Position numbers and translations under genes: made by a program
Shown here: one piece after another, positions 49-15,140 of the stretch
Layout of the letters: each line of letters begins with the position of its first letter
Position numbering within the stretch: position 1 is the stretch's first letter
From: an uncultured Candidatus Rokubacteria bacterium
GTDB lineage: Bacteria; Methylomirabilota; Methylomirabilia; Rokubacteriales; CSP1-6
NCBI GenBank assembly: GCA_963747235.1
Contig: CAVVEU010000009.1
Location: 1-15,559, forward strand
Direction of reading: 5' to 3'
Length of the DNA stretch: 15,559 nt
Notes under the pieces: generated by a model
Database searches by the model: none
Told to the model about the DNA's origin: nothing
Seen by the model: only the letters and a program-made list of their open reading frames with translations

Positions 49-756
49 CTAGCGCGGCGGCTTCGCCCGCGCGACCGGATTTGCCGCCGGCTTCGCCGGG
101 GCCTCCAGCGGGATCAGCGCGGCCAGCCGATCGTCGATCGTGGGGTGCGTGGCCAGCAAGCCCTCGAGCCCCTCGCGCTCCCGGGGCGTGTGGGCCGCGA
201 TGGCCTCGAGCGCGGTGGCCAGCGTCCGGCGGGGCGCCGCGTGGCCCATCGCGCGCAGGATCTCGACGGCCTTCTGGTCGGCCTGCAGCTCCTGGTGGCG
301 GCCGAAGGCGCGCACCACCAGCGGGTTGACCACGAAGTCGAGCAGACCCGCGCCCGGCGCGAAGATGCCGAGGGCGCCGAAGCTCGCGGTGAGCGACAGC
401 GACAGCTTCCGGCGCGTGCCCACGTGGCCCAGCACCTCGTGGGCCACCTCGTGCGCCACCACTGCCTCGATGATCGCGGCCGGCTGGCGCATGAGCCCGT
501 CGGTGAAGTAGAACGTGGCGTCCTCGTCGCTGTAGGCGGCCGCGGTGGGACTTTTGATGAAGGCGAACCCGTACCGCTGCGGGTCGTCGCCGCTCGCGAT
601 GGCGGCCCGGTGGAGGATGTGCGACATCCGGACGGTGGTCGGGTCGGCGGGCGAGGCATAGTAGGTGCCCTCGGGCGCGGAGGCGCAGGCCGAGAGCAGA
701 AGGCCTGCCGCGAGCGCCGTCACGCCGCTCCGGATCCCCACAGTCCGCGCCATCAT
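49..756 (-). CDS. M48 family zinc metallopeptidase, predicted lipoprotein
   Basis: Lipobox LLSAC after a basic/hydrophobic N-terminus, zincin motif HEVAHE, downstream E-x-x-AD (QELQADQ) and C-terminal THP...R typical of M48. Start is ATG 756 or 753. Confidence 0.85.
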   Translation of the reverse strand: MMARTVGIRSGVTALAAGLLLSACASAPEGTYYASPADPTTVRMSHILHRAAIASGDDPQRYGFAFIKSPTAAAYSDEDATFYFTDGLMRQPAAIIEAVVAHEVAHEVLGHVGTRRKLSLSLTASFGALGIFAPGAGLLDFVVNPLVVRAFGRHQELQADQKAVEILRAMGHAAPRRTLATALEAIAAHTPREREGLEGLLATHPTIDDRLAALIPLEAPAKPAANPVARAKPPR

Positions 757-2951: not shown

Positions 2952-5900
2952 CTACCCGAACTTGCGGCCCAGGGCCAATCCCACGGGAAGCCCGTCGGAG
3001 CCGCCATCGAGGGCGGCCCGGACGGCCCGGGCCAGGGCCGGCGGCGTGAACGGCTTCTGGAGGAGCGCCGCGAGCGGCTCGGTCTTGCCCCCGGAGGAGG
3101 CCATCTCGTCCGTGTAGCCCGAGATGTAGAGCAGGCGCAGGTCGGGGAGCTGCCCGCGAAGCTGGGCGGCGAGCGCCGAGCCCCGGATGGTCGGCATGAC
3201 CATGTCGGTGACGAGGAGGTCGATCTCCCCACCGCGTCGCGCGGCGATGGTGAGGGCCTCGCGCGGATCCCCGGTGGCCAGCACCGTGTACCCGCACGAC
3301 TCCAGCACGTCGAGGGCGAGCTGGCGCACCTCGGTCTCGTCCTCGACGAGGAGGATGGTCTCGCTTCCCCCGACCATCGCCACGTCCTCCTTGACGCCCG
3401 GTGGCGTCGGCGTGGGCGTCTCCGTCCGCGGCAGGTAGATCGTGAACGTGGTGCCGCGCCCGGGCGCGCTGTCCACGCCGATGTGGCCGCCGCTCTGGTG
3501 GACGATGCCGTACACCGTCGAGAGTCCGAGGCCCGTGCCCTTGCCCGGCTCCTTGGTCGTGAAGAACGGCTCGAAGATCTTGGCCAGGGTCGCCGGGTCC
3601 ATGCCGCATCCCGCGTCCTGAACGCGCACCGCGACGTAGTCGCCCGGCGGGATCCGTCCCTCGAGGTGCTCCTTGGCCTCCACGAGGTTCACGTGCCGGG
3701 TATGCGACCGTCAGGACTCCGCCGTCCGGCATCGCGTCGCGCGCGTTGACGACGAGGTTCATGACGACCTGCTCGATCTGCCCGGGATCGGCCATCACCT
3801 GGCCGAGATCGCCTCCGGGGGCGATGACCAGATCCATGTGCTCGCCGATCAATCGGCGGAGCATCGGCGCGAGCCCGCCGACGAGCGCGTTCAGGTCGAG
3901 CGGCTCCGGCTGCAGCACCTGCTTGCGGCTGAACGCGAGGAGCTGGCGGGTCAGGCCCGCGGCGCGCTCGGCGGCCTGGTTCACCAGCTCCACCTCCCGG
4001 CGGCCCGGGTCGCCGGCGTCCGCCCGCGCGAGGAAGACCTGGCTCCGCCCGATGATGATGGTGAGCAAGTTGTTGAAGTCGTGTGCGACCCCGCCCGCGA
4101 GCTGGCCGATCGCCTCCATCTTCTGCGACTGGATGAGCTGGTCCCGGGTCTCGGAGAGCGCCCGTAGCGCGTCCTGCGTCTCTTGGTAGAGGCGGCTGTT
4201 CTCGAGCGCGATGGCCGCCTGCGCGGCGAAAGCCATCGCGATCTCGACGTCGCCCGATGAGAAGCTGCCTTCCCGCGTGATCCGGATCGTCAGCACCCCG
4301 GTTATCCTCTCGTCGACCTTGACCGGCACACCGAGGAAGGCCCGGATGCCCGCCCGGCGGTAGCTCTCCCGATTGAGGGGGTTGAGCCGCGGGTCGTTGG
4401 CGGGGTCGTCGACGATCAGCGGCTCGCCGGTGACGGCCACGATCCCGGTCAGGCTCTCACCGACCTTGATCGCGGGCGTCGGCATGAGGTCTCCCCAGGT
4501 GCCACAGACTTGCAGCTCGTCGCCGGCGAGGAGCCGGAACGACGCGGATTCCGCGTCGAACAGGTGGCCGCACGCCTCCGCGACTCGGTTCAGCAGAGGC
4601 TCTACCGGCTGAATGCGCGACAGCTCCCGTCCGATGGTGAGCAGCGCCTCGAGCCGCCTCTGGCGCGTCTGCAGCTCGCCGACGAGACGGGCGTGAGCGA
4701 GGGCGATGCCGGCCTGACGGCTGATCCCCTGGACTAGCTGTACCTCGGGGGCGCCAAATCGATGCTCGCGCTCGATCCAGATGACGAAGATGCCTCCGAT
4801 CGGCTCTCCGTGAACCACCAGCGGAGAGAACAGGCTTGACCGATGTGGCAACCGGCGAAGGAATCCCTGATCCACGCGCGGGTCGCTCGCCACGTCGGCG
4901 ACCGCGACGGCTCTGCGCTGCTCCCAGGCTTCTTCAACGATGCGATGGCCCTTCAGTGGAATGGGCGTCACCATGAAATCGCCCAGCAGGTGCCTGGACA
5001 CGTGATAGCCCGCGATGGGGCGCAGCGTGACGTGCCCGGCGTCGGCCAGGAACACCCCCACCATGTCCGCGCCCAGCGCCAGTCCGGTTTCCTGCGCGAC
5101 CCGGCGCATCATCTCGGTGACGTCGAGTATCCCGTTGACTTGCCCGCTCACCGTGAGCATGGTCGTGCTCTGGTCTCGGCTCTCATCCAGGGCCACCTCG
5201 GCCTTCTCGCGGCCCGTCACGTCACGGATCACGCCCACGATCGACGTCTCGGTGTCGGTCGGCCAGGCCCAGAACCGCGCTTCCACTGGGAAGGCGTTTC
5301 GGTGGTGGGCGAGGCCGGTCAGGTTTATCGTCCTCGCGGTCCCGCGCGGGCCGCCGCCCGCGTGGAGAAGTCTCTCGATCTCTGCTTCCAGCCCGGGATG
5401 GTCGCTCGGGCTGATCATCTGGCTCAGGTGTCGTCCGGCCATCTCCTGCGCGGAGAGACCGAACAAGGTGGCCGCGCTCATGTTCCACCGCCTGATCCGG
5501 CCGGTCGAATCCAGGATCAGGACGGCGTCCGGCGCGGAGTCCATGATCGCGAGCAAGCGCTCTTCACTGCGCTCGAGCGTGCGGATCCGCAGGACGCGGA
5601 GGATGACGTAGAGCCCGATCGCCAGCAGCCCCGACGCGAGGGCCGCGCCGGCCGTCCAGGTCACGATGGCGGTGAGGGATCGCGCGACGCGAATCTCGCC
5701 TATCCGCTTGCCCGAGTCGAGAAGCGGCTGGGAGCGGACAAGCTGGAAGGTCGGGTCATCGGAGCCCACGGTGACGATCGGCCGTCCCTGCGCGTCGAGG
5801 ACCTGCCAGACTTCGGGGATCGCGGTGGACACGTGCCGCGTCACGATGTCTTCGATGCGATGGACCTGGAGATGCCAGAGATACGGCGCGGAATCCGCCA

Positions 5901-6069
5901 GGCGGTTGACGTGACTGACCGCGATCGCGAGTGTCGCCTCTACCGCGCCGGCTTCGTGCTCGTAGCCGACGGCGAGGAACGCAGCCGGCGGGACGCCGGC
6001 CACGAGGAAGGCGGTCGCCAGCGCAAGTCGCCTGGTAACCCGAGCGACTTGTGCCGTAGGGGCGGGCAT
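2952..6069 (-). CDS. Membrane-bound hybrid sensor histidine kinase (2 TM, PAS, 2 GAF, HisKA, HATPase, REC); one frameshift near 3702
   Basis: ORF 2947..6069 supplies TM, PAS (DSAPDAVL..WN.SAA.LFG), GAF-GAF, H-box AHDFNNLL and N-box NLVVNARDAM. ORF 2952..3692 supplies DAGCGM, FEPFFTTK, GTGLGL and REC (LLVEDE, LLVTDMVMP, QKPF). Removing one base near 3702 joins them (VLTVA-TRHVNLVE), about 1038 aa. Confidence 0.9.
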
Positions 6070-6414
6070 CAGGGTGACGGCCGGGCCGGGAGAGGGAGGA
6101 AACTGGCGGCCAGCGTCGGGGGGCCGAGCGCTCCTGGCACGCTGACGGCCGCGTCCGGGCCGGTGGTCGCGACCAGCATGCCGTCCCGCTTGAGAGCCGT
6201 TTCCCTTGCTGCCACTGCCACGAAAGCCCCTTCACTTCGACCCGGCAATCAGCGCTGCGGGCCGATCCTATCCACCTGTCAGGGGGCATCCGTCATGCCA
6301 CGGCGGCCCTCGCCGGCGCGGCCTCTATCTGGATGTCCTGACCTCGATAGACTGGCTCCCGGCCTGGCGCCGGGTAGAAACCGCGCAAGGACGCCACGTG
6401 ACTGCCGCCTTCCG

Positions 6415-7953
6415 TCACCGCGCGATCTCGCCGACCACGCGGACGCGGGTGCGCAGCGAGTTGCCGGGCAGGTAGGCGAGCGGCAGGTCCTCGACCTCGA
6501 CCACGTTGATGGTGGCCCGGTCGGCGCCGGCCGCCACCGCCTTGTCCTCGGCGGCCCGGCGGGCGCGCGCGATGGCCTCGTCCCGGGTGAGGTCCTGGAA
6601 GATCTGGTCCACCTCGCCGCTCACCTGGGCGATCGCGGCGCCCACCGCGTTGGCCACCGCCTGGTGCGGCACGTTGAGCACCTCGGAGACGCCGGCCAGG
6701 CGCGGCGGCACCAGGAACGAGCCGCCGCCCACCGCGATCAGCGGGGCGTCGCCCGCGTCGGTCTTCATGCGGTCCACGCCCTCCTCGATCATGGCGCGGA
6801 TGCGCGCGAGCGCCTCGGTCACCAGCGCGGCGGGCAGCGAGGCCACCCGCTTGCGGTCGCCCAGGTCGATGAGCCCGGCGGCGACCGCGACGTCGGTGAC
6901 GGTGAGGACGTCGCCGCCGAAGACGAGCGCCTGCTCGGTGAGGCGATAGCCGACGCTGGCCGGCCCGATCGTGAGGGCCGGCTCGGTCAGGACGCGCGTC
7001 CCGCCGCCCAGGCCCAGCGAGAGCAGATCGGGCATGCGGAACAGCGTGCGCACCCCGCCGATCTCCACGACGCTGTTCGCCTCACGCGGGAAGCCGTGGC
7101 GCAGGCTGCCGATGTCGGTGGTGGTGCCGCCCACGTCGATCACGAGGGCCTCGTCGCGCTTGGACAGGAAGGCGGCGCCGCGCATCGAGTTGGTCGGCCC
7201 CGACGCGAAGGAGTAGACCGGGTACTCCTCCGCCACCTCGGCCAGCATGACGGTGCCGTCGTTCTGGGTGAGGTAGAGCGGCGCCGCGATGCCGCTCGCG
7301 CGCAGCGCCTCGCTGAACGCCCGCGTGGTCTTCCGGGCCAGCTCGATGAGGCAGGCGTTGAGCAGCGCCGCGTTCTCGCGCTCGAGCAGGCCGATGCGGC
7401 CGAGCCGGTGCGACAGGGTGACCGCGACGTCCGGGCATTCCTCGCGGACGATGGCGGCGGCCTCCTCCTCGCACGAGGCGTTCAGCGGCGAGAACACCGC
7501 GGCGATGGCGACCGAGCGGATGCCGGCGTCGCGGATCCGCCGCGCCGCCGCGCGCATGCCCTTGCCGTCGAACGGGACGAGCGGGCGGCCGTCGAACTCG
7601 TGGCCGCCCTCCAGCATCACCACCTCGGCGCGCACCAGCTCGGCCAGGTCCTCCGGCCAGTCCACGAAGGGCGGCAGCGAGGCGCCCGAGGGCAGGCCGA
7701 TGCGCACCGCGGCGACGCGGCCCAGGTCGCGCCGCTGCACCACCGCGTTGGTGAAGTGGGTGGTGCCGATCATCACCGCGTGGGCCTCGCGGGCGCCGGG
7801 CGCCTGCTCCACCAGGGCGGCGAGGGCGCGGGTGATCCCGGTCGTCACGTCCGGCGTGGTGGGCGTCTTCACCCCCGCGGCCACCGCGTCGTCTTCGAGG
7901 AGGACCGCGTCGGTGTTGGTCCCGCCCACGTCGATGCCGATGCGCCGTCTCAC
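6415..7953 (-). CDS. Hydantoinase A / 5-oxoprolinase-family ATP-dependent subunit
   Basis: GIDVGGTNTD, IGTTHFTNA, GGHEFDG, LERENAALLNA, SGPTNS, DVGGTTTD, ANAVGAA. The true start is GTG 7953, overlapping the upstream TGA (GTGA). The 866-aa ORF in the track is an artefactual extension. Confidence 0.9.
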   Translation of the reverse strand: MRRRIGIDVGGTNTDAVLLEDDAVAAGVKTPTTPDVTTGITRALAALVEQAPGAREAHAVMIGTTHFTNAVVQRRDLGRVAAVRIGLPSGASLPPFVDWPEDLAELVRAEVVMLEGGHEFDGRPLVPFDGKGMRAAARRIRDAGIRSVAIAAVFSPLNASCEEEAAAIVREECPDVAVTLSHRLGRIGLLERENAALLNACLIELARKTTRAFSEALRASGIAAPLYLTQNDGTVMLAEVAEEYPVYSFASGPTNSMRGAAFLSKRDEALVIDVGGTTTDIGSLRHGFPREANSVVEIGGVRTLFRMPDLLSLGLGGGTRVLTEPALTIGPASVGYRLTEQALVFGGDVLTVTDVAVAAGLIDLGDRKRVASLPAALVTEALARIRAMIEEGVDRMKTDAGDAPLIAVGGGSFLVPPRLAGVSEVLNVPHQAVANAVGAAIAQVSGEVDQIFQDLTRDEAIARARRAAEDKAVAAGADRATINVVEVEDLPLAYLPGNSLRTRVRVVGEIAR

Positions 7954-9026
7954 GCGAACACCGAGCGGAAGTCGAGATCGTAGCCGAAGGCGCGCGGGCC
8001 GACGTGCTCGATCCCCTTCGGGGTCAGCAGGATCGGCGGCGCGGGCAGCGCGATGACGGTGACCCGCTGGCCGTAGCGCAGCAGCTCGGTGCCGATCGCG
8101 TCGCCGGCCACCGTGTCGAGCACGCAGATGAGATCGGGCGTCATGACCCGCGGCACGTCGTCGAGCCAGCCCACCGCGAACTCGTTCTGGAAGGCGAGCT
8201 TGAAGGTGTGGCCGCGGAACTGGTCGAGGCCCTCGATGGTCGCGGTGCCGCGGAGGAAGCCCTCGGTGGTGCGCCGGGCGATGTCGTGGATCTTGCCGCT
8301 GAAGATCTTGATGCCGGCCTCGACCTCGAGCACCGCGTCGATCGGATCGCGGTGGGCCCGCCGCGCGGCCTGGACCGCCCGGCCGATGCCGATGGCCTTG
8401 GTGGTGGAGCCCAGGATCGCGCACTCCTTGATCTCCTTGCCGGTGCGCGGGGCCTTGCAGGTGGAGGCGATCGAGCCGACCTCCACGCAGGCCTTGCGGC
8501 TGATGCGCTCCATCCACTTCCAGGAGGCCGCGCGCGCCACCACCACCGCGTTGTCGCGCACGTCGGCCAGGGTGAGCGGGTACATCTTGAGATCGTGGAT
8601 GGCGAAGCTGGTCATCTGGGCTTCGGGGAACGCGCGCCCCATGCAGTCGCCGTCGATCACCGGCAGGTCCAGCATCGCGGCGGCCATGAAGGGCTGGATG
8701 GAGTTGCCGCCGCCGATCTCGAGCGACATCACCGCGCGGAACTTCCGCCCGAGGTACTCCTCCATCATGGTGACGGCCAGCGCCATCGTCTTCGGATCGG
8801 TGAGGCGCTCCTGGCCGACCAGCGGCGCGCCCATGTTCGACACCACCGCCACCAGGTCGTCGTCGGCCAGCTCGGAGGCGTCCATGAGCTGGCACACCAC
8901 GCCCTTGCCGGTAGAGCTGGCGCATGTTGAGCAGCGCCAGGTACGGGCTGCCGCCGCCGCCGGTGCCCAGGATCCAGGCGCCGATGGCCAGGCTCTCGAT
9001 CTCTTCCGCGGCCACCGGTCTCGCAT
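7950..9026 (-). CDS. DUF917-family protein; two compensating frameshifts (about 9020 and 8905)
   Basis: N-terminus LAIGAWILGTGGGGSPY is in one frame. MGAP..ER, EIGGGNS, DGDCMGRAFPE, FQNEF, PDLICVLD, LRYGQRV and GPRAFGYD are in the other. ATG 9026 overlaps the upstream stop (TGATG). Confidence 0.88.
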   Translation of the reverse strand: MRDRWPRKRSRAWPSAPGSWAPAAAAARTWRCSTCASSTGKGVVCQLMDASELADDDLVAVVSNMGAPLVGQERLTDPKTMALAVTMMEEYLGRKFRAVMSLEIGGGNSIQPFMAAAMLDLPVIDGDCMGRAFPEAQMTSFAIHDLKMYPLTLADVRDNAVVVARAASWKWMERISRKACVEVGSIASTCKAPRTGKEIKECAILGSTTKAIGIGRAVQAARRAHRDPIDAVLEVEAGIKIFSGKIHDIARRTTEGFLRGTATIEGLDQFRGHTFKLAFQNEFAVGWLDDVPRVMTPDLICVLDTVAGDAIGTELLRYGQRVTVIALPAPPILLTPKGIEHVGPRAFGYDLDFRSVFA

Positions 9027-9798
9027 CAGAAGCCGGTGAACTCCTCGAGCCCCATGAAGCGCGCGATGCCCAGGACGAGCACCAGGGCCACCCCGATGGC
9101 GAAGGCGGACACCGCGGCCGCGGTGGGGTCGAAGGAGTACTTGAGATAGGCGAAGAGCTCGATCGGGAGCGGGGTCAGCTTCGCGCTGGTCAGGAAGAGC
9201 GACAGCGTGAAGTTGTCGAAGGAGATCGCGAAGGCGAAGATCGCGCCCGCCACCACGCCCGGCTTGATCACCCCCAGCGTGATCTCGAAGAACGCGCGCA
9301 CCGGGTGGGCGCCCAGGCTCTGGGCCGCCTCCTCGAGCGCCATGTCGAAGTGGGTGAGGGTGGCGGTGACGGTGCGGATCACGTAGGGCGTGGTCACCAC
9401 GATGTGGCCGATGAGGAGCGCCCGTAGGAGGCCTGCATCTTCAGCAGCGTGTAGAACTGGAGCAGCGCCACCCCGGTGAGGATCTGCGGCAGCAGCAGCG
9501 GCGAGGTCACGAACGCGTTCAGCAGGTCGCGGCCGCGGAAGCGCCCGCGCACCAGCACGATGGCGGCCGCGGTCCCGATCACGGTGGACGCGAGCGCGGT
9601 CCAGATCGCCAGCTCGGTGGAGAGCCAGAGCGCCTGCATGAACTCCCGCCGCTGGAAGAAGTTGGCGAACCACTTGAGCGAGAAGCCCTGGGGCGGAAAC
9701 GTGAAGTAGTTGCCCGCGTTGAACGCGGCCAGCACCACGACGACCATCGGGAGCAGCAGGAAGGCGTAGACCAGCCCGACGACCGATCGGAGGATCAC
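9026..9798 (-). CDS. ABC transporter permease (PotC-like); frameshift near 9422
   Basis: FPPQGFSLKWF and SPLLLPQILTGVALL in ORF 9394..9798. LLIGHIVVTTPYVIR, EAA loop LEEAAQSLGA, SFDNF and PLPIE in ORF 9026..9829. Adding one base joins them. Confidence 0.9.
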
Positions 9799-10643
9799 AC
9801 GATCCCGCCGCGAGCGCGCGCTCGGTCACTCTTGATGTAGACCGCGATCAGGGCCACCGAGATCACGAGCAGCACGAAGGCGTTGGCGGCGCCGAACGGC
9901 CAGTCGAACACCGAGAGCACCTGCTCGTAGACCACCATCGGCAGCACGTGCACCTTGAACCCGCCCACCAGGATCGGCACCACGAAGGAGCTGATGGCGA
10001 GCGAGAAGACGAGCAGGGAGCCCGCGAGGATGCCGGGCAGCGAGAGCGGCAGCGTCACCTCGAAGAAGGCCCGGCGCGGCGAGGCCCCCAGCGTCTGCGA
10101 GGCCTCGATGAGCTGGGGCTCGATGCGCTTCAGCACCCCGGTGAGCGAGAGCACCATGAAGGGCAGGAAGACGTGCACGAGCGCCAGGGTGACGCCGAAC
10201 TTGTTGTACATGAGCGGCAGCGGCTTGGTGATCCACCCGTGCTGCACGAGCGTGGCGTTGATGAGGCCGCGGTCGGCGAGCAGGATCATCCAGCCGTAGC
10301 AGCGGATGACGATGCCGACCAGCAGCGGCGACAGGATGAAGACGATCAGGAGCGGCTTCCAGCGCGAGCGGGTCAGGGCCAGGTGGTAGGCCAGCGGATA
10401 GCCCAGGAGGAGCGAGGCCACCGTGGTGAGCACGCCCAGCCACAGGGTGTCCGCGAGCACGGTCAGGTAGTACGTGTCGGTGAAGAAGTGGATGTAGTGC
10501 TGCGGGGTGAAGGACCACTCGAGCTGCCCGTACGACTGGCGCGAGAAGCTGATGGCGAGCATCAGCAGGAGCGGGGCCATGAAGAAGACCACGAGCAGCA
10601 GGACGTAGGGCCCCAGCAGCAGGACGCGGGCGCCGCGGGTCAC
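9795..10643 (-). CDS. ABC transporter permease (PotB-like)
   Basis: LGYPLAY, IRCYGWMILL..GLIN, FLPFMVL, LIEASQTLGAS, TLPLSLPG, DWPFGAA. Confidence 0.93.
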   Translation of the reverse strand: MTRGARVLLLGPYVLLLVVFFMAPLLLMLAISFSRQSYGQLEWSFTPQHYIHFFTDTYYLTVLADTLWLGVLTTVASLLLGYPLAYHLALTRSRWKPLLIVFILSPLLVGIVIRCYGWMILLADRGLINATLVQHGWITKPLPLMYNKFGVTLALVHVFLPFMVLSLTGVLKRIEPQLIEASQTLGASPRRAFFEVTLPLSLPGILAGSLLVFSLAISSFVVPILVGGFKVHVLPMVVYEQVLSVFDWPFGAANAFVLLVISVALIAVYIKSDRARARGGIV

Positions 10644-10646
10644 GGG

Positions 10647-11321
10647 TCAGCGGCCGAGCAGCTCCGCGGCCACGCGGGCCACGAGCAGGTTCGCCACCAG
10701 GGTGGGCGCGCCGGTGAGCGCGGCGATCTCGTCGCGCGTCTTCCGGCGGAAGCCGATGCAGTCCATGACCACGAGGCCCGCGTGTCCGGCCCGCAGCGCG
10801 TCGGCGGCGCGGCGGACCGCGGCCGGGTCGTTCTCCTCGTAGGGCGAGAGCGGGGCCACGTGCGCGTCGAAGCCCGAGGCGCGCCACCGCGCGATGGTCT
10901 GCGGCACGTGGCGCTCGGACGGCGTCAGCACGCCCAGGCGCCCGGGGAAGACCATCGCGCGGAGGAGGCCCAGCAGGAGCTGCTGCGGCTCGAGGAACGG
11001 CCGGCGCGCGGCGAGCTTCGGGAACTCGCCGGTGCAGAGCAGCACGTTCAGCGCGGTGCCCCGGTCCTCGAGCGCGGCGATCTTCGCCTCGATGCGCGGC
11101 GATCATCTTGGACTTGCCGACGAAGACCGAGGAGCCGTCGGCCAGCCGGGTGACCAGGATCTCGTCGTCGCCCTCGGGGGCGAGGGGCTCCATCTGCGCC
11201 CGCGTGAGCCCGTCGAGCGCGCCCGCCTCGATGATCTCGACGTCGCTCCCCAGGATCGCCGCCATGTCCGGCACCACGTCGCTGCGCGGCGCCTGTCCCA
11301 CCGTGATCAATCCGACCTTGG

Positions 11322-11325
<4 letters not shown>
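10647..11325 (-). CDS. AroM-family protein; frameshift near 11100
   Basis: GLITVGQAPRSDV, GALDGL and LVTRLADGS in the first frame. LLCTGEFP, LGVLTP..Q..RW, SPY and VMDCIGF in the second. Removing one G gives KMIPRIEAKIAALE, about 225 aa. Confidence 0.85.
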
Positions 11326-12406
<1,081 letters not shown>

Positions 12407-12410
<4 letters not shown>

Positions 12411-13438
12411 CGCATCTCCCGGTTCCACTTCTCCGTCCACTGCGGCCGCTGCTTGGCCACCTGGGCCCAGTCGAACAGCACGAGCTTGTCCACGTCGGCC
12501 GGCCCGCCGATGATCTTCTTCGCCACGTCCGCGGGCACCTTCACCGTCTTGTTGGTCGGGCTCCAGAAGAGCTCGGTCGCGAAGGCGAGCTGCACCTCGG
12601 GCGAGAGGTAGGCGTCGATGAACTTCCACGCCAGCTCCTTGTTCTTCGAGCCCTTCGTGACCTGGACGATCTGGTCGAGGATCGGCAGGCCCTCGCTGGG
12701 GGCGACCCAGTCCACCGGGATGCCGCGCTTCTGCAGGTCGTAGGTGGAGGCGTCGTGGAGCACCGCGATCACGACTTCCTTCTGCTCGAGCTGCTTCTCC
12801 ACGGTGCCGGTGAAGTCCACCAGCTTGGGCTGGGCGCGCTTGATGGCGGCGACCCCGGCGTCGATGTCGAAGTAGTCCTTGCCGAAGATCTTCGAGATCG
12901 ATGAAGAGGAAGTTGATGCCGAGCGTGTTGCCGATGACGTAGGTGGCCCGCTTGCCCACGTAGGCCTCGTCCCAGAAGTCCTTCCAGGAGGTCGGCTTCT
13001 TGAGGCCCGGATGTCGGTGCGGTAGGCGAGGCCGATGCGGCCCCAGAACATGGCGAGGCTCGTGTCGCCGATCAGCGCCTTCGGGTAGAGGTTCTTGATG
13101 TTGGGCGCCAGGGTCTCGTTGCGCTTCTCGAAGAAGCCGCGCTCGCGCGGGATCGGGAAGGCCGGCTCGTTGCCGAAGACCACGTCGTACGGCGGATTGT
13201 CGGGGCCGGCGGCCAGGAGCTTCGCCACCCACTCGGTGGTGATCCCGGTGACGACCTCGACCTTCACGTTGTGCTTCTTCTCGAAGGGCTCGACGAGCGC
13301 CTTCTTCATCACCTCCGACCAGCGGCCGCCGTAGCCGGTGACCACGAGGGTGGTCTGCTGGGCCTGGGCGGGGAGCATCGGGAGGAGGAGCGTGCCGGCC
13401 AGGATCGCGATCAGGACGACGGTCAGGCGACTTCTCAT
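12407..13438 (-). CDS. ABC transporter substrate-binding protein (PotD/PotF-like); two compensating frameshifts (about 13008 and 12900)
   Basis: Signal peptide MRSRLTVVLIAILAGTLLLPMLPAQA with GGAGG RBS. YGG..FEKKHNVKV, KPTSWKDFWD (shifted segment), PSEG, KNKELAWKFIDAYLSPEVQ, WTEKWN. Confidence 0.9.
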
Positions 13439-13533
13439 GAGCAGGCCTCCACTGAGGGCGCGATGAAGAAACGGGCAGGGCGAGTCATCGATGTGGCCTC
13501 TGCTTTTCTCACGAACCCCACCGATGTTCAAGG

Positions 13534-13968
13534 CTACAGCGTTTTCAGGACCTCGGCCGGCCAGGCGCGGGCATCCACGCGGGCATGCCACTCCTTGATC
13601 TTGCCGTCCCGATCGATCACCACCCCGACGCGCTGCGCGCCCTTCTGCGGGTCGGCGTTGGCGCCGTAGGCGGTGCCGATCGTCCGGTCGGTGTCGCAGA
13701 TCAGGGGGAAGTTGAAGGAGAACTTCTCGGCGAACTGCTTGTTCTCGGCGGGGGTGTCGAAGGACACCCCGAGGATCACCGCGTTCTTGCTGTCGTACTC
13801 GGCCTTGAGGTCGCGGAACCCGCAACCCTCGGCGGTTCAGCCCGGCGTGTCGGCCTTGGGGTAGAACCAGAGCACGACCGTCTTGCCCTTGAAGTCCGCG
13901 AGCTTCACCGGGTTGCCGTTGTGATCGCGGCCGGTGAAATCCGGCGCCTTGTCTCCTGGGTTGAGCAT
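13534..13968 (-). CDS. bcp: BCP/PrxQ peroxiredoxin, selenocysteine-containing (UGA at codon 44), 144 aa
   Basis: Manual translation: MLNPGDKAPDFTGRDHNGNPVKLADFKGKTVVLWFYPKADTPG-U-TAEGCGFRDLKAEYDSKNAVILGVSFD...FPLICD...AQRVGVVID. AAGGAG RBS before ATG 13968, TGA at 13839-13837. Confidence 0.92.
13807..13830 (-). promoter_or_regulatory. Candidate bacterial SECIS element
   Basis: GAGGGUUGCGG-GUU-CCGCGACCUC hairpin starts 6 nt after the UGA, with the apical loop about 17 nt downstream and G first in the loop. It resembles the E. coli fdhF SECIS core GGUUGCAGGUCUGCACC. Confidence 0.75.
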
Positions 13969-14004
13969 GAGGTCTCCTTGGTACCCGCCGGCGCGGGACG
14001 GTGT

Positions 14005-14397
14005 CTAGGCGCAGCCGGCGCGGGGGGTTCCCGGCGCCCGCCGGGGCACGAGGGTGCAGGCGAAGGTGGCCGGCTGCTTGCGGTGCTGCTCGAGCAGGGC
14101 CGAGAGCCGCGCCAGGGTCCGATCGCGCTTGGCGAGGCCGATGCCGTAGATGGCCAGGTCGTTCACGAGCCGGAGATAGAACACGTGCTGGGCGTCCGCT
14201 CCAGCGCCCATGCAGGGCGTGGGCTTCTCGGCCAGCCGCAGCAGGGGGCCGAACGCCCGCGTGTACTCCTGGAGGGTGGGCTCGTCGCGCAGGTCGCGGG
14301 GCACCTCGGGAAACCGGGCCAGGAGCTCGTCCACCGACATCGGCCCCGCGGCGGCGCGCCCCCGTTGTTCGAGGTCTGGCATGCGGCGGATCTGCAT
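14005..14397 (-). CDS. Hypothetical protein (about 130 aa; alternative start 14340)
   Basis: Protein-like composition (MSVDELLARFPEVP...FYLRLVNDLAIYGIGL), GC-rich third positions, GGAGG upstream of ATG 14397. It fills the gap between bcp and the divergent cupin. Confidence 0.7.
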   Translation of the reverse strand: MQIRRMPDLEQRGRAAAGPMSVDELLARFPEVPRDLRDEPTLQEYTRAFGPLLRLAEKPTPCMGAGADAQHVFYLRLVNDLAIYGIGLAKRDRTLARLSALLEQHRKQPATFACTLVPRRAPGTPRAGCA

Positions 14398-14438
14398 GGT
14401 GTGGGCCCTCCGCCCGCAAGTATAGCCGGTTGGTGATG

Positions 14439-14467
14439 TTGACGCTCGCGGAGCCGCGGCGTACGGT
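14439..14467 (+). promoter_or_regulatory. Putative sigma70 promoter for the cupin gene
   Basis: TTGACG-17 nt-TACGGT, then GGGAGG RBS and ATG 14489. An opposite-strand TATACT at 14424-14419 could serve the divergent hypothetical-bcp unit. Confidence 0.5.
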
Positions 14468-14488
14468 GGCGAACGGGAGGGACGGACC

Positions 14489-15016
14489 ATGAACGCCATG
14501 CGCGCGCTGGACCTCGACCAGATCACCGCCATCATCGGGGGGGCCACGAAGCCGGTCAACGTGCTCTGGCAGACCGACGACTCGATCGCCTTCGTGGCGC
14601 GCGGCCGCGAGGGCCGGAGCGAGTTCCACGTGGATCCGAGCGACGAGGTGATGTACATGATCCGCGGTGACATGAACCTGCACTACCGCACGCCCGACGG
14701 CGCCGAGAAGGTCGCGGTGATCCGGGAGGGTGAGATCCTGCACTGCCCGGCGGGCACCCCGCACTCGCCGCGCTTCCCCGCGGACGCCTACGTGCTGGTG
14801 CTGGAGCGCAAGCGGCGGGCGGGCGAGCAGGATCGCTTCCTCTGGTACTGCCCGGCGTGCGACGCCCCGCTCCACGAGGCGGTGCGGCAGGTGGGCGACT
14901 GGCGCGACGATCCGGTGTCCGAGGTCTACGCGGAGTTCTACGGCTCCGCCTCGCACCGCACGTGCCGCAAGTGCGGGCACGTGGCGCCGGGTCGGCCCGC
15001 GCCGGTCACCGGGTAG
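14489..15016 (+). CDS. 3-hydroxyanthranilate 3,4-dioxygenase-like cupin
   Basis: R..FHVDPSDE (His/Glu Fe ligands), PAGTPHSP, LVLERKR and the rubredoxin-like pairs WYCPAC...RTCRKCG characteristic of HAO/NbaC. Confidence 0.8.
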   Translation: MNAMRALDLDQITAIIGGATKPVNVLWQTDDSIAFVARGREGRSEFHVDPSDEVMYMIRGDMNLHYRTPDGAEKVAVIREGEILHCPAGTPHSPRFPADAYVLVLERKRRAGEQDRFLWYCPACDAPLHEAVRQVGDWRDDPVSEVYAEFYGSASHRTCRKCGHVAPGRPAPVTG

Positions 15017-15140
15017 CGTCTGCGCCTCGCGCCGGACGTTCATGGCTGGTCGGGCGACGCTCCGGGGCCTGGCGCCGAATTGACACGTTGTTCACGACTT
15101 GTCCCTCGATCCCTGCGAAGCTAGGGAGGAGGAGGGGACC

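Follow-up and report, generated by a model that had tools for sequence, protein, structure and literature searches.

Gene structure and product of the locus

The window analysed here is a stretch of 15,559 nucleotides that corresponds to the whole contig C9 of genome G000, a metagenome-assembled genome (MAG) of the Rokubacteria/Methylomirabilota (5.57 Mb, 42 contigs, 88% complete). Its minus strand carries a gene for a peroxiredoxin (Prx) of the BCP/PrxQ type, in which a TGA codon occupies the position of the peroxidatic cysteine (Cys) and is most probably read as selenocysteine (Sec, U). The gene and the associated elements are as follows.

13534..13968, minus strand: full coding sequence of the Sec-containing peroxiredoxin of the BCP/PrxQ type, with 144 codons followed by the TAG stop at 13536..13534, from the translation with TGA read as U
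13837..13839, minus strand: UGA codon 44, predicted to be read as Sec, at the peroxidatic position of P37xxxT41xxU44, from the translation and the conservation of the TGA in orthologues and named loci
13974..13979, minus strand: Shine-Dalgarno sequence AAGGAG, 5 nt 5' of ATG 13968, read directly from the sequence
13822..13824, minus strand: codon 49 (TGC), candidate resolving Cys (UxxxxC) five residues past Sec, aligned with the second Cys of CxxxxC in PDB entry 2ywn
13808..13828, minus strand: bacterial selenocysteine insertion sequence (SECIS) hairpin with the 5' arm at 13828..13820, a GUU loop at 13819..13817 and the 3' arm at 13816..13808, from folding and comparison

Starting at ATG 13968, the frame reads MLNPGDK...VVLWFYPKADTPG up to the TGA, continues with TAEGCGFRDLK...AEVLKTL and ends at the TAG codon. 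The TGA at 13839..13837 is the sole in-frame stop of the 144-codon frame. In the list of open reading frames (ORFs) obtained with translation table 11, the gene consequently appears as two pieces, 13837..13968 (43 aa) and 13534..13779 (81 aa, GTG start). A preliminary description of this DNA had followed the frame from ATG 13968 through the TGA into the 81-aa ORF, and both the translation and the table 11 list confirm this course.

The product was found to match the Pfam family PF00578 (AhpC-TSA) with 130.3 bits (cut-off 26, E 4.9e-38), covering residues 4-126 and profile positions 1-123 of 124. Matches to BCP/PrxQ proteins of known structure were obtained with 2ywn and 4g2e (E 4.1e-23) and with 3drn (E 6.7e-22). 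The active-site motif reads P37-K-A-D-T41-P-G-U44, followed by U44-T-A-E-G-C49. In the alignment with 2ywn, U44 is matched to the peroxidatic Cys of PxxxTxxC and C49 to the second Cys of CxxxxC (C-TKEM-C), so that motif and alignment agree with the earlier placement of the TGA exactly on the peroxidatic Cys in a UxxxxC arrangement. The activating arginine is also conserved, as R113 in AQRVGVVID aligns with the Arg of AKRAVFVID in 2ywn.

Conservation of the in-frame TGA

A six-frame search of 40 relatives and of G000 itself yielded 41 match rows. Eighteen of these are 80-99% identical to the window protein, contain exactly one TGA each and no other stops or frameshifts, and have the TGA at codon 44 in every case (18/18). 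These orthologues span 17 genomes, with G000 represented twice, together with 14 of 20 genomes of the same genus and 2 of 8 of a second genus. The remaining 23 rows are stop-free paralogues with identities of 39-49%. The Cys paralogue of G000 itself, located on contig C6 and 41% identical, reads FYPKDDTPGCTKEAC.

A scan of species-representative public genomes resulted in 80 named loci from the Methylomirabilota, Myxococcota and Acidobacteriota, of which 65 have TGA at codon 44 and 15 have TGC. The closest of them are labelled Candidatus Rokubacteria, Rokuibacteriota or Methylomirabilota. At identities of 59-71%, TGA forms were found in Myxococcota (Archangium, Myxococcus, Pyxidicoccus, Anaeromyxobacter, Polyangiaceae) and Acidobacteriota (Thermoanaerobaculia). 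TGC forms were observed in Corallococcus (10), Hyalangium (2), Minicystis (1) and Acidobacteriota (2). The alternation of TGA and Cys codons among homologues, proposed earlier as a check, is thus borne out by orthologues, named loci and paralogue alike.

These data bear on the explanation that the TGA is a substitution error of sequencing or assembly, the true codon being TGC or TGT and the protein an ordinary Cys-type BCP. The assembly does contain many frame breaks: selD is broken into two pieces, a further selD-like gene into three, and a histidine kinase gene and the S-Me-THD gene are split within the window. These lesions are frame shifts and not substitutions, which is in accordance with the earlier argument that indels in the window make a TGC-to-TGA error less likely. 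The second G000 copy, on contig C33 (96.8% identical over the region), furthermore has TGA at this codon, as do 16 other genomes and the 65 named loci, which stem from independent assemblies. The C33 copy (C33:382737-383168) differs from the window gene at 7 of 435 bases; six of the differences are synonymous and none affects the TGA or the hairpin. Since the hairpin goes together with TGA and is absent from the TGC forms, and since conservation across genomes excludes an error at this codon, we assign a negligible probability to this explanation.

A second alternative holds that the gene is a pseudogene, either a BCP gene with a nonsense mutation or one that is really divided into two parts, a peptide of 43 aa and a remnant of 81 aa. 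The interruption of the frame under table 11 would fit, and the Cys paralogue of G000 could cover the BCP function. Among the 18 orthologues, the ratio of nonsynonymous to synonymous substitution rates (dN/dS) was calculated to be 0.155 upstream of the TGA (codons 1-43) and 0.184 downstream of it (codons 45-141). The two parts are thus similarly constrained, which points to the same purifying selection on both. Moreover, all 18 orthologues lack further stops and frameshifts, and the TGA is conserved across three phyla. There is no start codon between the TGA and GTG 13779, and a split product would therefore lose 20 conserved codons including that of Cys49. A pseudogene is hence considered extremely improbable, and the data favour a single intact frame with a recoded UGA.

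The hairpin downstream of the UGA

The predicted SECIS element consists of a 9-bp stem and the GUU loop, begins 8 nt past the A of the UGA and sits within codons 47-54 (E-G-C-G-F-R-D-L). The middle base of codon 49 forms one side of pair 26-36 of the stem (alignment columns). In a 41-nt context the minimum free energy (MFE) is -19.6 kcal/mol, and the spacing from UGA to loop is 17 nt. For bacterial SECIS elements, PMC13188914 quotes a loop of 3-9 nt with a G in the first two loop positions, a stem of 4-16 bp, a UGA-to-loop distance of 16-37 nt and an MFE of -7.5 kcal/mol or lower. The window hairpin lies within all the ranges quoted there. The hairpin that the preliminary description had seen at the expected spacing therefore agrees with published criteria and, as detailed below, is conserved with covariation.

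An alignment of 71 distinct 60-mers from Sec forms (A1), with 639 stem cells, was used for comparison. Pairing was observed in 98.0% of the cells, compared to 28-56% when the 3' partners were slid by 1-3 columns. At pair 26-36 a compensatory swap was found, with G-C in 59 and C-G in 12 of the 71 sequences. One-sided compatible changes comprised G-U to A-U (17), U-G to C-G (1) and U-G to U-A (1). A 3-bp lower helix was also predicted (columns 16-18 with 45-47); it was rejected as a part of the element, being paired in 63.4% across relatives.

Codons 48-53 (GGT TGC GGG TTC CGC GAC) are identical at the DNA level in the 18 orthologues. This amounts to 6 of 6 degenerate codons with an invariant amino acid, compared to 21 of 76 in the rest of the gene (Fisher p 8e-4, a value inflated by relatedness). 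The 15 Cys forms encode a near-identical peptide, yet their synonymous sites vary and 61.5% of the cells are paired. The mean MFE is -5.1 kcal/mol for Cys forms and -14.2 kcal/mol for Sec forms. Gly48 is encoded by GGT in 69 of the 71 Sec forms and by GGC in 12 of the 15 Cys forms.

Two Cys forms from Hyalangium (L094, L097) have kept the hairpin sequence in a partly decayed state, and both cluster with Sec forms in the tree described below. Such a pattern would fit a Sec-to-Cys reversion followed by decay of the SECIS element.

Selenocysteine decoding capacity

All four components for Sec decoding, which the preliminary description had expected elsewhere in the genome, were found in G000 with scores above the curated cut-offs. 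The tRNA-Sec gene (selC) is located on contig C14 (69.3 bits, gathering score 47) and was called as tRNA-SeC with anticodon tca by ARAGORN. It is adjoined by selA (578 bits) and selB (365 bits), while selD is located on contig C27 (G000:C27:46033-46945, 227.8 bits). G000 also encodes a second selenoprotein, the formate dehydrogenase alpha subunit FdhA (C8:590703-593795, plus strand; TIGR01553, 1122.5 bits), with exactly one in-frame TGA. A single in-frame TGA in formate dehydrogenase is a classical selenoprotein signature. In the genome of one relative (G040), two tRNA-Sec matches above the gathering score were observed (C21:228131-228224 and 394561-394654; 76.9 and 52.2 bits).

These findings relate to a third alternative, according to which the UGA is read as Trp, Gly or Cys without selenium, either through a lineage-wide change of the code or through near-cognate suppression. 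In its favour, the inserted residue cannot be identified from sequence alone. Among the 14 reading frames of the window that were checked, seven are terminated by TGA, and all seven have Pfam domain matches. Because TGA ends these frames, it is not reassigned. The codon 44 column alternates with Cys codons only, as expected for Sec/Cys pairs, a conserved SelB-type hairpin follows the UGA, and both the decoding genes and FdhA with its single TGA are present. Decoding without selenium is accordingly rated as very unlikely. The insertion of Sec, as already proposed in the preliminary description, is instead supported by the TGA/Cys alternation, the SECIS element and the sel genes.

Evaluation of the selenoprotein assignment

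Several observations weigh against the assignment as a BCP/PrxQ-subfamily selenoprotein. The top NCBIfam matches remain below their curated cut-offs, with 110.2 vs 140 bits for the Bcp equivalog NF006960 and 102.4 vs 260 bits for PrxQ (NF053650); the protein is therefore filed at the subfamily level and not as an equivalog. With regard to decoding, selD of G000 falls into two frames (8-240 and 235-309), which is probably an assembly indel. Neither selB nor tRNA-Sec was found in G017, a genome with a TGA form that is 80% complete. In turn, selB was detected in 36 of 41 relatives, many of them among those without a detected TGA form. Co-occurrence thus supports competence for Sec insertion but does not discriminate.

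Further points concern the hairpin. Its single-sequence fold is not significantly more stable than that of shuffled sequences, with z = -0.68 (43 of 200 shuffles as stable) for 66 nt and z = -1.82 (13 of 200) for 41 nt, in a context of 70% GC. The significance of the hairpin hence derives from the comparative data and not from the single-sequence fold. In an Rfam scan of the hairpin no family was matched, and the five weak hits (E 5.2-9.3) were far under the gathering scores. A double change occurs at one stem pair only; because its 12 carriers form one Acidobacteriota clade, the swap from G-C to C-G at pair 26-36 was probably a single event. Four of the nine stem pairs are invariant, and loci L085 and L087 each break two stem pairs. 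In addition, the residues encoded by the hairpin (GCGFRD) are conserved, and constraint on the protein accounts for part of the conservation of the hairpin.

Weighing these points against the conserved TGA, its alternation with Cys codons and the conserved stem in the Sec forms, we conclude, from sequence comparison, that 13534..13968 is in all likelihood (probability of about 95%) one intact gene for a BCP/PrxQ-subfamily peroxidase of the thiol/selenol type and a genuine selenoprotein gene with a UGA-encoded peroxidatic Sec.

Resolving cysteines, phylogeny and distribution

The presence of Cys49 and Cys91 was tallied over 92 distinct proteins. Among the 77 distinct Sec proteins, 50 have both residues, 11 only Cys49, 16 only Cys91 and none lacks both; Cys49 is present in 61 of the 77. 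Both residues occur in all 15 distinct Cys proteins. In the 16 Sec proteins without Cys49 (among them L085, L087 and L099-L135; A1 columns 25-27), residue 49 is Ser or Arg, and all 16 retain Cys91. This pattern suggests that with selenium at the active site either thiol, Cys49 or Cys91, may act as the resolving residue for the oxidised enzyme. The swap in the stem converts codon 49 from Cys (TGC) to Ser (TCC) in the Acidobacteriota group (12 of the 71 distinct 60-mers), accompanied by a synonymous change on the opposite arm (CGC to CGG).

A tree was calculated with FastTree from 78 rows, leaving out 18 loci outside the set of named genomes, two truncated loci and duplicates. It features a 33-row Rokubacteria clade consisting entirely of Sec forms (support 99) beside Myxococcota with mixed Sec and Cys forms. 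The topology requires at least five Sec/Cys changes, which is a soft count, as strong support is confined to 12 of the 75 inner branches and these force only one change.

Sec-BCP genes of the Rokubacteria type (80-92% identical to the window gene) were also observed on contigs of MAGs labelled Deferrimicrobiaceae, Verrucomicrobiia, Dormiibacterota, Acidoferrum and Actinomycetota (L058, L078, L079, L085, L087). These loci nest within the Rokubacteria clade, and their placement is explained either by mis-binning or by recent transfer.

Taken together, a joint reading can be put forward tentatively, although we regard it as rather unlikely in its entirety. A Sec-PrxQ clade with a near-identical SECIS element in the codons of the active-site helix would have spread horizontally among soil Methylomirabilota, Myxococcota and Acidobacteriota, with several reversions to Cys (Corallococcus, Hyalangium, Minicystis). 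Selenium would relax the need for Cys49, the loss of Cys49 in Acidobacteriota would be a side effect of the stem swap, and RNA structure and catalysis might co-evolve as a coupled unit.

Proposed mode of action

The steps proposed here are modelled on recoding of the E. coli fdhF type and on PrxQ catalysis. During translation, SelB-GTP carrying Sec-tRNA(Sec) would bind the loop of the hairpin (G-U) at the UGA, so that Sec is delivered and termination does not take place. Activated by T41 and R113, the U44 selenolate would then reduce H2O2 or an organic hydroperoxide and be converted to a selenenic acid. Attack by Cys49 on the selenenic acid is expected to yield an intramolecular selenenylsulfide; in relatives without Cys49, Cys91 may take over as the resolving residue. 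Reduction of the selenenylsulfide by thioredoxin would finally recycle the enzyme. The catalytic cycle of Cys-type BCP/PrxQ enzymes with CxxxxC proceeds through an intramolecular bond, with thioredoxin as the reductant.

Assembly context and neighbouring genes

The window is in part a duplicate of another region of the same genome (G000:C33:381666-388822). Positions 34-2979, 6418-9022 and 13512-15038 are 93-97.5% identical to it, while 2979-6418 (PAS-GAF histidine kinase) and 9022-13512 (ABC transporter operon) occur in the window only. The duplication looks like a co-assembled strain variant. Due to the additional blocks in C9 compared to C33, the downstream neighbours of the Sec-BCP gene differ between the two copies.

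Some genes of the window match their families in two to three overlapping frames, namely the histidine kinase, the S-Me-THD/hydantoinase genes and AroM (2947-6069/2952-3692, 6415-9015/7950-9026 and 9826-11325). Overlapping frames were likewise found for selD and for the second, three-piece selD-like gene (G000:C8:303114-303868). This suggests indel errors in the assembly. The selB gene of G040 is split in a similar manner. ARAGORN further called a 92-nt tRNA-Tyr (gta) at 502-593 on the plus strand, antisense within the frame of a peptidase M48 (49-756, minus strand) whose Pfam match extends over these positions. The tRNA call may be spurious, in DNA of high GC content.

Significance for annotation and experiment

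The selenoprotein-specific peroxiredoxin models of NCBIfam miss the window protein, and table 11 yields only the 43-aa and 81-aa pieces. That standard gene callers would split the gene, as expected in the preliminary description, is a prediction based on this table 11 ORF list. An abundant Sec-PrxQ of soil bacteria is therefore likely to be under-called in genomes of Rokubacteria, Myxococcota and Acidobacteriota. With this gene, one more Sec/Cys pair is well supported, and its SECIS element is compact and defined in sequence. Cultured carriers of the TGA form (Archangium gephyra, Pyxidicoccus fallax) could serve for a comparison of selenium and sulfur in PrxQ catalysis, and a SECIS element embedded in active-site codons provides a system for studying constraint on protein evolution. 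We consider it mildly new that the codons of the active-site helix, that of Cys49 included, also contain the element. No new class is opened by this gene, since Sec-containing peroxiredoxins and the selenoprotein richness of Methylomirabilota have already been published.

Comparison with known systems

The experimentally established precedent for a Sec-peroxiredoxin is reportedly PrxU, described by Sohling et al. in 2001. PrxU of Eubacterium acidaminophilum (NF040737) and Prx-SUH (NF045827) are likewise Sec-bearing peroxiredoxins with a thioredoxin fold. Membership in the PrxU family was rejected (42.7 bits, cut-off 270), as was membership in Prx-SUH (18.7 vs 298 bits); the PrxU models comprise about 233 residues, compared to 144 in the window protein. 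Another class, the Prx-like thiol:disulfide oxidoreductase selenoproteins with UxxC or UxxU, is related to PF00578 and bears Sec in the redox motif according to PMC13188914. The window protein was not assigned to it, as it features TxxU followed by xxxxC (UxxxxC) and not a thioredoxin-like UxxC.

Compared to Cys-type BCP/PrxQ proteins with CxxxxC (E. coli Bcp type; PDB 2ywn/4g2e, 3drn, 5enu), the window protein shares the fold, the length, the PxxxTxxC pattern, the resolving Cys at +5 and the Arg. It differs by the Sec in place of the peroxidatic Cys, by its score below the NF006960 cut-off and by an identity of 41% to the Cys paralogue of its own genome.

Among the closest known systems is also the Sec-Prx (TxxU) family from the 2005-2006 surveys of the Zhang and Gladyshev groups, with which the gene shares PF00578, the PxxxTxxU motif and the Sec/Cys alternation at the peroxidatic position. 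We take COG1225 to be the COG of Bcp-type proteins. For the Sargasso Sea data, 43 Sec-Prx genes with TXXU are given under COG1225 in the survey (PMC1088965). PMC1794560 gives a count of 12 Sec-Prx for bacterial genomes, and Anaeromyxobacter dehalogenans accounts for three of these. A locus from an Anaeromyxobacter MAG (L106) is a TGA orthologue with about 69% identity to the window protein. In the 2026 review cited above (PMC13188914), PxxxTxxU is given as the Sec-Prx motif, and a Methylomirabilota MAG is predicted to have 63 selenoprotein genes. Judging by titles and the beginnings of abstracts, no paper devoted to Sec-PrxQ was found under the names PrxQ or bacterioferritin comigratory; the family is in print as 'Prx'. 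The hosts in the present case are soil MAGs of the Rokubacteria/Methylomirabilota, and the likeness to the surveyed family is based on published descriptions and not on sequences. The statement in the preliminary description that Sec-peroxiredoxins are known as a class agrees with these selenoproteome surveys. The window gene is a Rokubacteria addition to the known Sec-Prx (BCP-type) family, a class that has been known for about twenty years.

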